64,000 bases of DNA from Octopus vulgaris (taxonomy: Eukaryota): the NCBI GenBank assembly GCA_951406725.2, contig OX597814.1:53134001-53198000 (forward strand), read 5' to 3'. The notes under the pieces are model-generated. The model was not told the DNA's origin. It searched no databases and worked only from the letters and a program-made list of their open reading frames with translations. A program made the position numbers and the translations under genes. Of this stretch, positions 8,433-56,000 are shown in pieces (the stretch's first letter is position 1; every line of letters starts with the position of its first letter).

Positions 8433-10122
8433 CATACATATACACATATATATTATATACATATAAACATGCACGCAAACACAAGTTTCCGCCTACCAAA
8501 TCCATTCACAAGGCTTTGGTCGTCGGCCTCAAGCTTTAGTAGAAGACACTCGCCTGAACCCCAAACCATCTAGTTGGAAAGCAACCTTCTTATCATACTG
8601 CTACGCCTGCGCCTACGTATTTACTTTCGCAAGGAACCTGCATGATGACGGCTAGTGAGCACAACTTTCGACATCACTGTCTAAATATTCCGTGTATATA
8701 CATTTATACACGCACAGACACATATACACAAAGACATACACGCATGTGTACATATGCATTTCTACATATACATATATGTATAAGTATTCAAATAAACGTG
8801 TACATATATATGTATTTGTGTGTGTCTGTATATACTTGTATACTTGCATAACTGTGTGTGTGTGTGTGTGTGTGTGTATGTATGTATGTATGTATATATA
8901 TATATGTATACATATATATATATATGTATACATATATATATATGTATACATATATATATATATGTATACATATATATATATGTATATATATATATATATA
9001 TATATATATATATATATATATATATATATATATAGTGTAAAGACAAAGAGAAGTATACAATATATCATACAAGTTTAATTATTCTTGATGTCTTGAAAAT
9101 TATCTTTGTTCCTAGAGAAAATAAAAAGCTAGTACCTGGCGGCTATTGCTGCCGATTCTAGATTAGAATCCACATGAATATGCGACACACACGCACACAC
9201 ACACACACACACACACACACACACACACACACACACACACGCACACACGCACGCGCACGCACACACACACACACACTCGCACGCACACACACACGCACAC
9301 ACAGAGATATATATTCATGTGTGCGAGAGTGCGCGCGCGTTTGCGTACACTATCTCTTTCCATGTGGCCCTTCTCTATCTTTGTTTTTGATATATTGTAA
9401 ATTTTATTCTATCCCTCCATGTTAATAGCATAATATTTCCAGGAATATAAGAGCAAATTGATCTGGTCGAATTGATGCTATAGTTCAAATAACAAATTGT
9501 TTGTCTAATTTTCAGTGATTTTGGCGAAAATTGTCAACTCCCTCTCTATCTCTCTCTCTGTCTATATATATATATATATATATATATATATATATATTTA
9601 TATATACAAATACAGACTAAATAAATCAAAAATATAAACGAATGAGAAACAAGAAACTCATTGAAACACATTTGTATAAAGGAATGTGGAATTGTAGAAG
9701 AGTATTACGTGTCAAAATATAATGACAAAGATAATTAAAAAGGTATTTTCAAAAAATAGCTGCGTGATAAGAAGCTTGTTTGCAGTCACATGGCTCCATG
9801 TTCAGTCCCACTACGTGGTTCTTTGTGCAAGTGTTTTCTACGAAAGCCTCGGGTCGACCAAAGATTTGTGAGTGTATTTGGTAGACGAAAATTGAAAGAA
9901 GTCCGGATATACACGCACGCACGCACGCACACATTCACACACACACATACACACGCACACACACACACACACATACACACACACATGCTTTCATATATTT
10001 TTATATATATAAAATACAAAAATGGGACAAGAACGCAAAACATCCTGACAGTTAGCTGATACAAAAAAGGGACAACAAAACATACTGACAGACGATACAA
10101 AGAAAACAAGGACGGTTTTCAT

Positions 10123-10195
10123 TCCTCAGTCGAGTTCCAGATTATCTTTGTAATTTCGGCTGGTTATACTCGAGATTGCTCCAATCTGGCCAGCC
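10123..10195 (-). ncRNA. Candidate non-circularly permuted, pseudoknotted hammerhead ribozyme (copy 1), inside a TA-flanked dispersed repeat at ~10010-10270
   Basis: Minus strand: GGCTGG-CCAGATT-gga-GCAA-UC-TCGAGT-ataa-CCAGCC-GAAA-TTAC-aaagat-AATCTGG-a-ACTCGA-CUGAGGA. All HHR core motifs are present with four helices, and the architecture is the same as at 32697-32773. Confidence 0.6.
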
Positions 10196-11017
10196 CCAAG
10201 GAAAAACTAAGCTAAGAGCACTAGATTCCTTGCAAGAAAGTAGCGAAGGTATACGAAAACAAGGAGAACTTCAATTGGAGCTTAGTAAAATCTATAAAAA
10301 GAACAATTTCTTTTTAATCAGTTCAAGAGAATAGAATAATTTGCAAGCTGACTCCGCCGCTCGAATTTTCGAAATCTCAAGGTAACATAACTGCTCTTTT
10401 TTTCCCTCTCTATCTTGTTATCTCTCTCCCTCTCTCTATTTCTATTTCTATCTCTCTCAAGCACAGATGCGCGCCCGCACACATACACACGTACACACAA
10501 AACACACACATGCACACATTATGACTGACATGCGCATCGTTCTAGACTTGCATTAACTGTTATTTGAGACATTTTAATTTTCTCATGAACATTTTCCATA
10601 AATTTGAAGTTTGTCCATTCGTGTGAATATGAACGATATTCGAAGCAAAATATTATGTAGTGGAACTTTTTTGCGATAACAACGGCAATTTTTATTATAT
10701 TGCATTTTTAATCTCTTGTTCTGTTTTGATACATTGTGATCAACTTAATCTTCTTAACGGAATGAAAAGACTTGATATATTTCATCATAATCTTCGTCCT
10801 TTGTGTCGGCAAATATCTACAAAAGGAGCCATTAATATTATTATTTCAACATGGCTGTGTGGTAAGAAGTTTGTTTACCAGCCACGTGGTTCCGCGTACC
10901 ACTATGGGCAAGTATCTTCTACTATAGCTTCGTGCCGACCAAAGCCTTGCGATTGGATTTGGTAGACAGAACTGAAAGAAGCCCGTCATATATATATATA
11001 TATATATATATATATAT

Positions 11018-52215: not shown

Positions 52216-53056
52216 TATATATATATATATATATATATATATATATATATATATATATATATATATATATATATATATATATATATATATATATATATAT
52301 ATATATATATATATATATATATATATATATATATATATATATATATATATATATATATATATATATATATATATATATATATATATATATATATATATAT
52401 ATATATATATATATATATATATATATATATATATATATATATATATATATATATATATATATATATATATATATATATATATATATATATATATATATAT
52501 ATATATATATATATATATATATATATATATGTATATATATATATATGTATATATATATATATATATATGTATATATATATATATGTATATATATGTATGC
52601 ATATATATATATATATATATATATATGTATATATATATATATATGTATGTATATATATATATATGTATATGTATGTATATATATATATGTATATATATAT
52701 ATATATTATATATATGTATATGTATGTATATATATATATATGTATATATATATATGTATATATATATATATATGTATATATATGTATGTATGCATATATA
52801 TATGTATATATATATGTATGCATATATATATGTATATATATGTATGTATATATATATATGTATATATATATATGTATGCATATATATATGTATGTATATA
52901 TATATATATGTATATATATGTATATATATATATATATATATATATATGTATATATATGTATTATGTATTAAACGTAGGTGTATATGTGTATAATATATAC
53001 ATATATGCATATATACATACATATATAAACATATATATATATATATATATATATAT
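52216..53056. repeat. Very long (TA)n/(TATG) microsatellite
   Basis: Directly visible, ~840 bp. Confidence 0.95.
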
Positions 53057-56000
53057 CAATTTGTTCTAGATTAGCAAAGAACTCCGTGTATGCTGACGGC
53101 AGGGTCGGGGCTATTGTAACCCATGGTTGTGTTCCCATTTAGACTGTTTATTTTACTACACGGAGTGATATACAAGTCAAGGTATAAATTGTTACATATT
53201 CCTTTATTGAAGTAAATTCGACTTATAGTGTTTATTGATCATTTTTCTCAACCTGCTCATTGATCGTTTAAGAAAAACTGAACGACGTTAACGAACTGGT
53301 GTATCCTCATCAGAGAATAGTATCCAAAATACAATAACTGATGAGGATATAACATTATTCTTTAAAAACCAGGTGTAAGTCGAATTTATGCATATATATA
53401 GGAATTTGTAATGACTATATATTTATACCTTGTCTTATATATATAATATTCTATGTATATTCCATTTCCCGTCTTTCATTTATATATATATATATATATA
53501 TATATATATATATATATATATATATATATATATATTTGTATATATGGATATGTATATATTTACGTATGTATATCTATGTATATAGTGTGTGAATATGCGT
53601 GTATATAAATCTATGACACTCAATGACAAGCGGAAATATGTATAAATGAATTACAAAAGCGAAGTTAGCTATGTGTTCTATGCATACTTGTCGCAGTCGT
53701 AGTATATTCGGAATGTTACAAGTATATTATAATACCACTATTTATAATCTTTTGTATATAGAGCCACAATGTCAGCAATTTTGAGAGCAGAAATTGTATG
53801 GGATATATCGACCCTATGTACTTGACCTGTATGCATACGGTTGGTTCTTTATTTATCGACGCTGAGGGGCTGAAACGCAAAGCTGACTTTAGCGGCATTT
53901 GAAGTAAGAACGTAAGCTGTAACTAGATATTGGCTTCAAATTTTGGCACAAGGCCAGCAAGTTCAGGTAAGCGGGTAAGTCGATTATATCGCCCTCAGTG
54001 CTCAGCTGTTTATTATTTTATCGACTTCAAAAGCGATGAAAGGTGAAGTCGACTTCAACGGAATTTGAAATCAGAACGTAAAGACAGACGAAATGACACT
54101 AATCAATTTACCCAGCGTGCTAAAGTTTCTCATTTATAGTCATTACAAAAAAGAATGATACCGAAGGAATTCTGTAAAGACACCGATAGGTGACATATAA
54201 GTATAGATGTAGACACGTTCCCAAAAAGCAACGCAAACAGCAGGTCTATAATTTTTAGAACATTCTCTCTGTAAACATGTGTTAACACAATAAATTTGTG
54301 TGCGCATCTTCCAACTTGTATATTGCCAATAGTATTCTTTATGATAAGGATAATATCTAATATTGTTGTTATAATTTACAAGCATATGTAATGATAATAA
54401 TGGGTGGATGTAAACACATGAATAAAATTAGAACAAAAGCAACAACAACAAAAACAAAATACAAATTACAAGAATGTATATAACCAGAAGATACAAATAT
54501 TACAGGCATCCCCCCCACACACACACTAAATAAACATAGACGCACATAGAGATATAAGCATGCGCAAATGAAGACATACAATAGAAATACAAAATGGCTG
54601 ACGGTTAGTAAGGAGAGACACAAGTAAGTGATAAGAAAACAAAGGACCACTGATGCGGTCACAGGAGTGTGACGAAAGAACTTTGGCCGAAATAAGATTA
54701 AGATTAATGTAAAAAATAAATATCACTGAAGCAAAATAACACCAAATATATAGTGCGTGTGTTTTTATTGGCTAAACTGGCAATATGACCATTCCGAAAT
54801 ATAACAATATATATATATATATATATATATATATATATATATATATATATATATATATATATATAATCAATTTGTTCTAGATTAGCAAAGAACTCCGTGT
54901 ATGCTGACGGCAGGGTCCGGGGCTATTGTAACCCATGGTTGTGTTCCCATTTAGACTGTTTATTTTTCTACACGGAGTGATATACAAGTCAAGGTATAAA
55001 TTGTTACATATTCCTTTATTGAAGTAAATTCGACTTATAGCTGTTTATTGATCATTTTTCTCAACCTGCTCATTGATCGTTTAAGAAAAACTGAACGACG
55101 TTAACGAACTGGTGGTATCCTCATCAGAGAATAGTATCCAAAATACAATAACTGATGAGGATATAACATTAGTTCTTTAAAAACCAGGTGTAAGTCGAAT
55201 TTACTACAATAAAGGAATTTGTAATGACTATTATTTATACCTTGTCTTATATATATAAATTCTTGTATATTCCATTTCCCGTCTTTCATTTGCCATATAT
55301 ATATATATATATATATATATATATATATATATTGTATATATGGATATGTATATATTTACGTATGTATATCTATGTATATAGTGTGTGAATATGCGTGTAT
55401 ATAAAACTCTATGACACTCAATGACAAGCGAAAATATGCTGATAAATGAATTACAAAAGCGAAGTAAGCTATGTGTTCTATGCATACTTGTCGCAGTCGT
55501 AGTAATTCGGAATGTTACAAGTATATTAGGAATACCACTATTTATAATCTTTTGTAATAGAGCCACAATGTCAGCAATTTTGAGAGCAGAAATTGGTGGG
55601 ATACCATCGACCCTAGTACTTGACCTAGTACATACGGTTGGTTCTTTATTTATCGACGCTGAGGGGCTGAAACGCAAAGCTGACTTTAGCGGCATTTGAA
55701 GTAAGAACGTAAGCTGTAACTAGATATTGGCTTCAAATTTTGGCACAAGGCCAGCAAGTTCGGGTAAGCGGGAAAGTCGATTATATCGCCCTCAGTGCTC
55801 AGCTGTTTATTATTTTATCGACTTCAAAAGCGATGAAAGGTGAAGTCGACTTCAATGGAATTTGAAATCAGAACGTAAAGACAGACGAAATTACACTAAT
55901 CAATTTACCCAGCGTGCTAACGTTTCTCATTTATAGTCATTACAAAAAAGAATGATACCGAAGGAATTCTGTAAAGACACCGATAGGTGACATATAAGTA

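Follow-up and report, generated by a model that had tools for sequence, protein, structure and literature searches.

We analysed a 64,000-nt stretch of the Octopus vulgaris genome (assembly GCA_951406725.2, contig OX597814.1; C1:53134001-53198000), referred to here as the window and numbered from its first base, together with searches at genome scale (2.8 Gb). Microsatellites are abundant across the window, which also holds hammerhead ribozyme-like motifs that appear to be of two kinds, both belonging to retroelements: type I hammerheads, and a scrambled six-helix fold of the ends of Naiads, a clade of Penelope-like elements (PLEs), that is likely to be self-cleaving. On the evidence of sequence and predicted pairing, we give this reading a probability of roughly 0.7. 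The permuted forms, to which the first-pass annotation gave no more than a brief mention, constitute the novel part of the window's hammerhead set and are tied to the Naiad clade, not to the Neptune-type PLEs.

Two permuted, four-way hammerhead-like motifs lie on the minus strand. That of family A (32692-32810, from the scan and pair counts) runs from the 5' strand of a helix designated P0 (32810-32806) through a hairpin, H (32805-32774), and the 5' strand of helix II (32773-32769) to the 3' strand of stem III (32753-32749), U17 (32748) and the 3' strand of stem I (32747-32742), with the predicted cut at 32748/32747, and continues with the 3' strand of helix II (32738-32734), GAAA (32733-32730), CUGAUGA (32703-32697) and the 3' strand of P0 (32696-32692). 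The motif belongs to a non-coding unit of ~790 bp that carries a partial upstream copy of its own 3' end, in the manner of a pseudo-long terminal repeat (pseudo-LTR), and ends in (TA)n (32412-33300, minus strand); elsewhere in the genome, the tandem spacing of family A is 784-800 bp. The motif of family B (10117-10239) is decayed in stem III and P0, with CUGAGGA at 10129-10123, GAAA at 10157-10154, C17 at 10174 and the 5' strand of helix II at 10195-10190.

In both motifs the cleavage-site block comes first, GAAA next and CUGANGA last, which is the non-circular order S-G-C. The full order of strands is P0-5', hairpin H, II-5', I-II helix, III-3', UH and I-3', followed after 1-6 nt by II-3', GAAA, III-5', I-II helix, I-5', CUGANGA and P0-3'. 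Every base of the hammerhead core is retained (CUGANGA, GAAA and UH, in which H is not G), and the 5' strand of helix II is supplied from upstream instead of lying next to CUGANGA, with pairings that differ among families (GAAGG/CCUUC, GGCUGG/CCAGCC, GACACC/GGUGUC, GAGCA/UGCUC and GCCCAA/UUGGGC). Hairpin H terminates immediately 5' of G10.1, P0 joins the bases right after A9 to those right before H, and the linkers from A9 to P0 and from H to G10.1 measure 0-1 nt, such that the two added helices are predicted to make a four-way junction at A9/G10.1. The motif sits near the 3' end of its element, ahead of (TA)n. Families A and B resemble retrozymes in layout, with tandem units of 730-930 bp, but carry the permuted motif in place of the type I hammerhead that defines a retrozyme. 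Two other interpretations were set aside: splicing of family A at a CAG/G junction at G10.1 was dropped, though not disproved, as this CAG forms the 3' side of H and is missing from families B, C and D, and a direct pairing of leader and tail was replaced by H plus P0. Contigs from public sequencing runs displayed neither RNA ends nor splice-type joints, features that contigs are unable to reveal.

First-look genome searches returned 3138 candidates for family A, which has young copies (95-98%), 2068 for family B and 2137 for family C, which was found in a flank. Two anchor patterns gave 3896 and 5636 matches genome-wide, compared with 118 and 421 for reversed controls, and revealed at least three families beyond A, B and C; at least six families with differing helix sequences thus have one geometry. 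A filter on stems I and III was passed by 40 of 85 pattern matches, 32 of which had a 5-bp upstream helix II; each of two control windows gave 1. As MAFFT misaligned the anchors across all families, pair counting was split between 13 sequences of families A, D and E and 11 of a B-group, and family C is absent from both alignments. The first group had 89% of cells paired and two-sided change in 24 of 34 pairs, the second 87% and 17 of 37; in both, none of 500 shuffles reached the observed values, and slid registers paired 29-52%. Two-sided changes are present in all six helices, and stems I, II and III, with G10.1-C11.1 and A15.1-U16.1, have covariation support, as expected of a hammerhead. That the motifs reflect chance complementarity in a few amplified repeats is very improbable given this variety of families, the two-sided changes and the fixed place of the motif in the 3' ends of Naiads from distant phyla, even allowing that pattern counts are inflated by copy number alone, that the permuted descriptor was unenriched in 400 kb of arbitrary DNA (3 vs 4.5) and that one window shuffle scored 48 compared with 59 for a real permuted motif; this explanation is already largely refuted.

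In Craig et al. 2021 (PMC8557442), Naiads are described as having no canonical hammerhead, with some of them flagged 'HHR_core' or 'HHR_half_core'. The last 250 nt of the Naiad_Obim and Naiad_Ovul consensus sequences are family C, the entire motif included, and family C occupies the 3' untranslated region (UTR) of a Naiad reverse transcriptase (RT) open reading frame (ORF). Of 30 genomic loci that retain a Naiad RT C-terminus, 17 carry the motif downstream of it and on the same strand (16 of 29 once the query locus is removed), compared with 1 of 40 arbitrary 10-kb loci. Downstream of 30 GIY-YIG loci, the coding strand yielded no permuted motif, and a 3' motif common to family A and a Neptune element was not significant (287 of 500 shuffles were as good). 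Permuted motifs near Neptune-type RT loci in L176, L218 and L128 look like separate insertions, and a PLE RT beside family C in L103 is a separate insertion. Families A and B have no ORF with GIY-YIG and RT and no detected sequence homology to Naiads: a Naiad RT search of 238 sequences gave no match, and neither did blastn comparison of A and B with family C. These ORF-less families of the window are probably non-autonomous derivatives.

The last 450-600 nt of 32 of 54 published Naiad consensus records were read by eye, and non-circular hammerheads were recognised in 16 of the 32 ends (8 of the split form seen in the window, 6 of type CSG and 2 of type SGC). The split form is present in Obim, Ovul, Esco (helix II imperfect), Bfor (stem I of 2 bp), Chem-3, Movir-2, Dst-4 and Plae, and the P0/H/II/A9 junctions of Plae and Dst-4 are free of linker bases. 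With unrelated helix sequences, this architecture can be made out in ctenophore, hydrozoan, box jellyfish, acanthocephalan, ostracod and squid Naiads, and the split fold at Naiad ends spans five animal phyla. Complete type CSG motifs were read in Hpol, Nbra-1, -2, -3, Hcon and Smim (five nematode and one spider), and SGC motifs with long inserts in Lpol and Ppla (horseshoe crab and crab). All three forms share one circular strand order opened at different points, and are likely to be circular permutations with a common ancestor; the split fold is likely the ribozyme that Naiads were thought to lack. Among the 16 ends without a clear motif, three are ambiguous (Ptep, Sdum and Dst-1), and over the stretch viewed nothing was seen in the other 13. 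Two Naiad ends (Naiad-1_Movir and Naiad-4_Chem, File S5) carry motifs that seem to resemble twister ribozymes, and some Naiads may use another ribozyme class.

Across 32 motifs, N7 is U, A or G in 16, 13 and 3 cases and H17 is C, U or A in 16, 10 and 6. Hammerhead catalysis requires conserved catalytic bases and leaves N7 free, and this is the pattern retained here, with all catalytic bases and the exclusion of G at position 17 kept across unrelated families and phyla. Such retention makes it unlikely that the fold persists only as a non-catalytic, hammerhead-derived signal, for example in RT binding, initiation or RNA stability. This alternative draws on reports that PLE hammerheads cleave slowly (PMC6765202) and that one Penelope element did not depend on hammerhead cleavage to insert in vitro, with none of the reads terminating at the cut site (PMC11167929).

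Slightly less unlikely, though still doubtful, is that the split fold represents the off-state of a switch, the active form being a classical SGC hammerhead whose helix II is made when the nucleotides 3' of CUGANGA take the place of the upstream strand. Most copies carry a G located 2-3 nt beyond A9, pairing of the tail with II-3' can reach 4 bp in family A and 3 bp in L317, and true SGC forms exist in two arthropod Naiads. Over all families, however, the tail after CUGANGA makes 0-4 bp with II-3' (0-1 bp in family B, 2 bp in family C), mostly G.U, and instead pairs and co-varies with the 5' strand of P0, while the upstream strand forms 5-6 Watson-Crick pairs from G-C11.1 in every family.

For the split fold as a self-cleaving motif, we envisage that P0, H, helix II and the G12.A9 pair would meet in a four-way junction in which stacking of P0 on H would keep A9 beside G10.1 and rebuild the normal core, with cleavage 3' of H17. 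This apposition can be likened to the one- or two-base insertion that PLE hammerheads tolerate after A9 (Cervera and de la Pena 2014, PMC4209133), and the alternative stacking of H on II would constitute an off-state. Two cuts in a tandem transcript would yield a unit whose ends remain paired via P0, II, the I-II helix and III; because the ends would stay held by these four helices, re-ligation into a circle would be favoured, and a PLE RT could copy such circles into (TA)n. We consider it somewhat probable, with less confidence than for the window itself, that Naiads have their own class of non-circularly permuted hammerheads in three interconvertible permutations (CSG, SGC and split), of which the split form self-cleaves, favours circularisation and spawned ORF-less families, with ~9,000 intact-core copies in this genome.

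Several observations weigh against the split-fold reading. H might stack on helix II instead, obstructing the core, and Eckert 2023 (PMC10085705) assumed CUGAnGA to be inseparable from the adjacent strand of stem II. We found no tested precedent for a break at A9/G10.1 in the literature; the crystallised pseudoknot hammerhead (PMC11300833), which we had considered as one, proved a wrong choice, as it keeps A9 and G10.1 joined. The 45 of 85 pattern matches that failed the stem I/III filter were truncated, decayed or due to chance. P0 had at least 5 pairs in 65 of 81 motifs and in 222 of 810 control registers, a weak control, and was weakest in the B-group (67% paired), where the junction-proximal pair is broken in 9 of 11 sequences. 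Structures were drawn from the same sequences in which pairs were counted, which favours them, and the copies are related. At the loci examined, neither a Naiad nor a Neptune RT lies within ~1.5 kb of families A, B, D and E, and the Naiads of this genome are broken remnants only, in spite of the young copies of family A. Half of the Naiad ends viewed (16 of 32) have no clear motif, and the cross-phylum readings are those of an observer's eye on consensus sequences whose identity was taken from file order.

The other hammerheads of the window had been described in the first-pass annotation as a dense ecosystem of folds in at least 12 unrelated contexts. A strict type I/III descriptor matched only a 480-bp tandem unit (4 copies), and an Rfam search of the window gave 0 hammerhead matches at gathering score and, at E<=1, no hammerhead among the best 150 of 179 matches. 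The strict scan misses several sites because of a swapped 3-8 pair (U3-A8 at 15957/16897, G3-C8 at 24149), a long stem II or a palindromic minimal stem III. A relaxed descriptor admitting any Watson-Crick 3-8 pair, a long stem II and a palindromic stem III, drawn up after the window sites had been viewed, gave 11 matches at a cut-off of >=22 compared with a mean of 0.75 (maximum 2) in 20 block-dinucleotide shuffles, and 30 compared with 5.5 in its independent test on 400 kb of arbitrary genome DNA. The folds are thus present above chance, but only 6 of the 12 contexts were recovered (11410, 15950/16891, 24142, 42890/44974, 50206 and 54645), the window copies of the other six being decayed or atypical. 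Better-folding relatives were found for 13274 (L212), 41779 (L336), 31610 and 32213, the last two having 12 and 11 spanning copies, respectively, in a 1.55 Mb genome sample, whereas 19175 and 33909 had no copy in that sample, no genome-wide search having been made.

With tandem arrays counted once, the window holds 8 matches per 64 kb compared with ~24 per 400 kb in the sample, a difference of ~2x that does not amount to a dense ecosystem; at a stricter cut-off (score >=24), the flanking 150 kb yielded 6. The earlier attribution of much of the apparently unique DNA to such elements was an overstatement, as they cover ~9 kb (14%) of the window, an estimate that depends on approximate element boundaries. 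Association with (TA)n did hold, with 13 of 16 hammerhead sites at most 350 nt from a (TA)5 tract compared with 38% of window positions (P=0.02), and searches agreed that no PLE RT is present in the window. The window's hammerhead folds are real, but belong to a genome-wide background of type I PLE/retrozyme elements; the view that they are non-autonomous, PLE-related and (TA)n-linked suits these type I elements and not the bulk of the window.

The most regular of these elements is a non-LTR retrozyme between (TA)n tracts (11017-13049, plus strand), an ORF-less tandem repeat of 4.2 units of 480 bp, each bearing a canonical type I hammerhead (cores at 11416, 11896, 12376 and 12856). Its family has 803 genome candidates, many in tandem and the top copies 98-99% identical, and is young. 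Several elements are inverted repeats. Those at 13060-13760 (minus strand; hammerhead at 13280-13365, better folded in the L212 relative) and 18900-19540 (19175-19268 minus, seen by eye in the window copy alone) have long-stem-II type I hammerheads. The relaxed scan recovered U3-A8 hammerheads in both arms of 15874-16973 (15957-15989 minus, 16897-16929 plus) and a G3-C8 core (24149-24185) at 24060-24390 (minus strand); this last element has 7252 genome matches, with G3..C8 in 94 of the first 100 listed, and G3-C8 is its family state. The same scan recovered type I hammerheads in the inverted arms of 42723-45238 (42890-42925 minus; 44980-45014 plus, with G17), between which lies an open frame of 291 aa (43240-44800) with no Pfam match that we take to resemble ORF1 of a long interspersed nuclear element.

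Decayed sites comprise a minimal type I hammerhead element at 31545-31720 (minus strand), a fragment of a Neptune-type pseudo-LTR, terminated by (TA)n, with a minimal hammerhead at 32110-32360 (plus strand, from alignment to an autonomous element) and an old type I element at 41770-41830 (minus strand). A type I hammerhead with a palindromic stem III (50210-50249) lies ahead of (TA)n at 50140-50313 (plus strand, relaxed scan), and an element at 54400-54806 (plus strand) has an A9C-variant core (54650-54683) that is kept in 2 of 2 relatives. The weakest site is a possible long-stem-II hammerhead at 33900-34022 (minus strand), with a stem I of just 2 bp. A further U3-A8 type I hammerhead, absent from the first-pass list, was observed at 2249-2283 (minus strand) and has one relative, in L097.

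Intact PLEs exist elsewhere in the genome (19,996 first-look candidates), with an ORF of ~1080 aa that comprises RT, a CxxxCxxC linker and GIY-YIG; the name Neptune follows the way PMC8557442 describes the linker. The autonomous families examined terminate in (TA)n; in most of them a minimal type I hammerhead, its core C3-G8, U3-A8 or A3-U8, lies ~100-150 nt from that end. The link anticipated between pseudo-LTRs and autonomous RT plus GIY-YIG elements was found for 32213, which aligns with the 3' end of one such element (0 of 500 shuffles were as good). All four Watson-Crick pairs occur as family states at position 3-8 in this one genome (C-G, U-A, G-C and A-U), as surveyed in the L210 and L369 3' UTRs, L206 and the window site at 24149. 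The most abundant intact Neptune-type family has a CUGUUGA (A6U) core in its 3' pseudo-LTR (L156), yet looks recently active. A GIY-YIG match of another kind, in L366, is probably a host gene exon, presumably SLX1-like.

Other repeats of the window include what we take, by eye, to be short interspersed nuclear element-like copies, and a Tc1/mariner remnant that retains terminal inverted repeats and sits as an insertion within (TA)n (49090-50150; Pfam Transposase_1 and DDE_3). Two direct repeats of ~290 bp with internal deletions between 38150 and 41010 were read by eye as the broken remnant of what is presumably an LTR retroelement. A minisatellite at 23040-23733 has 6.5 copies of a 107-bp unit at 96% identity. 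A ~500-bp repeat occurs in opposite orientations 4 kb apart (17433-17960 and 21590-22100), each copy adjoining (TA)n, and the hammerhead scans of the window gave none in either. A 1.2-kb segment is nearly duplicated, with many small indels, at 53057-54250 and 54866-56130; both copies have inverted CUGAUGA motifs (~53310-53345 and ~55120-55160), from which no hammerhead fold could be drawn.

If the permuted motifs are what we propose, they would answer the puzzle of why Naiads, as described (PMC8557442), are without the hammerhead of other PLEs, a reported lack that had suggested the ribozyme to be dispensable or parasitic. Non-circular RNA permutations would move from environmental sequences to animal genomes, in thousands of copies and with deep covariation, and the orphan SGC and CSG ribozymes would gain a home there. 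The motif would be the first hammerhead with a broken A9-G10.1 link, overturning the assumption that CUGAnGA is contiguous with stem II, and its core-embedded four-way junction could serve as a switch and as a new site for engineering. With RNAs of ~120 nt, these proposals are experimentally testable.

Among known systems, minimal type I PLE/retrozyme hammerheads (PMC4209133; Li et al. 2026, bioRxiv 10.64898/2026.07.22.740005) account for the 12 listed contexts, sharing the short palindromic stem III, the extra base after A9, U3-A8 covariation and the tandem or inverted arrangement. They differ in that G3-C8 and A3-U8 are family states here, while the available reports give the swapped 3-8 pair in nature as U3-A8 only. 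The reading of such elements as type I, PLE-related and (TA)n-associated is already in print (PMC4209133; PMC6765202; bioRxiv 10.64898/2026.07.22.740005). For the permuted motifs, our literature search, whose coverage excluded most subscription journals, found no report of permuted hammerheads in Naiads or other retroelements, and the terms 'type-SGC' and 'type-CSG' only in Eckert 2023. The core insertions listed in the accessible part of Perreault 2011 lie elsewhere in the hammerhead, with none at A9/G10.1. In the pseudoknot hammerhead (Zhan et al. 2024, PMC11300833), most of helix II also comes from a remote strand, but A9, G10.1-C11.1 and G12 are contiguous and the blocks keep their ordinary order.

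The SGC and CSG types self-cleave in vitro according to Eckert 2023 (PMC10085705), which reports SGC from metatranscriptomes only, with none in the genomes of known organisms except one bacterial GCS candidate. Type SGC (HRIMA-1) shares with the window motifs the S, G, C order, the core bases, a short stretch linking I-3' to II-3' and a helix connecting the distal ends of stems I and II, but the window motifs have no intact block C (CUGAnGA followed by the 5' strand of stem II): P0 and H are inserted at A9/G10.1, the 5' strand of helix II is remote, both strands of stem III are joined to the I-II helix, and copies number thousands in an animal genome. Type CSG, described there from two metagenome sequences, has the same circular strand order, which the window form opens at A9/G10.1 and not between III-5' and the I-II helix. 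Naiads (PMC8557442) share with the window families a preference for (TA)n, 5' truncation and partial tandems, whereas families A and B have no ORF and no detected similarity to family C. Judged by sequence, the type I part of the window is of a known kind, and the permuted motifs are a candidate new hammerhead variant with a specific link to Naiads.

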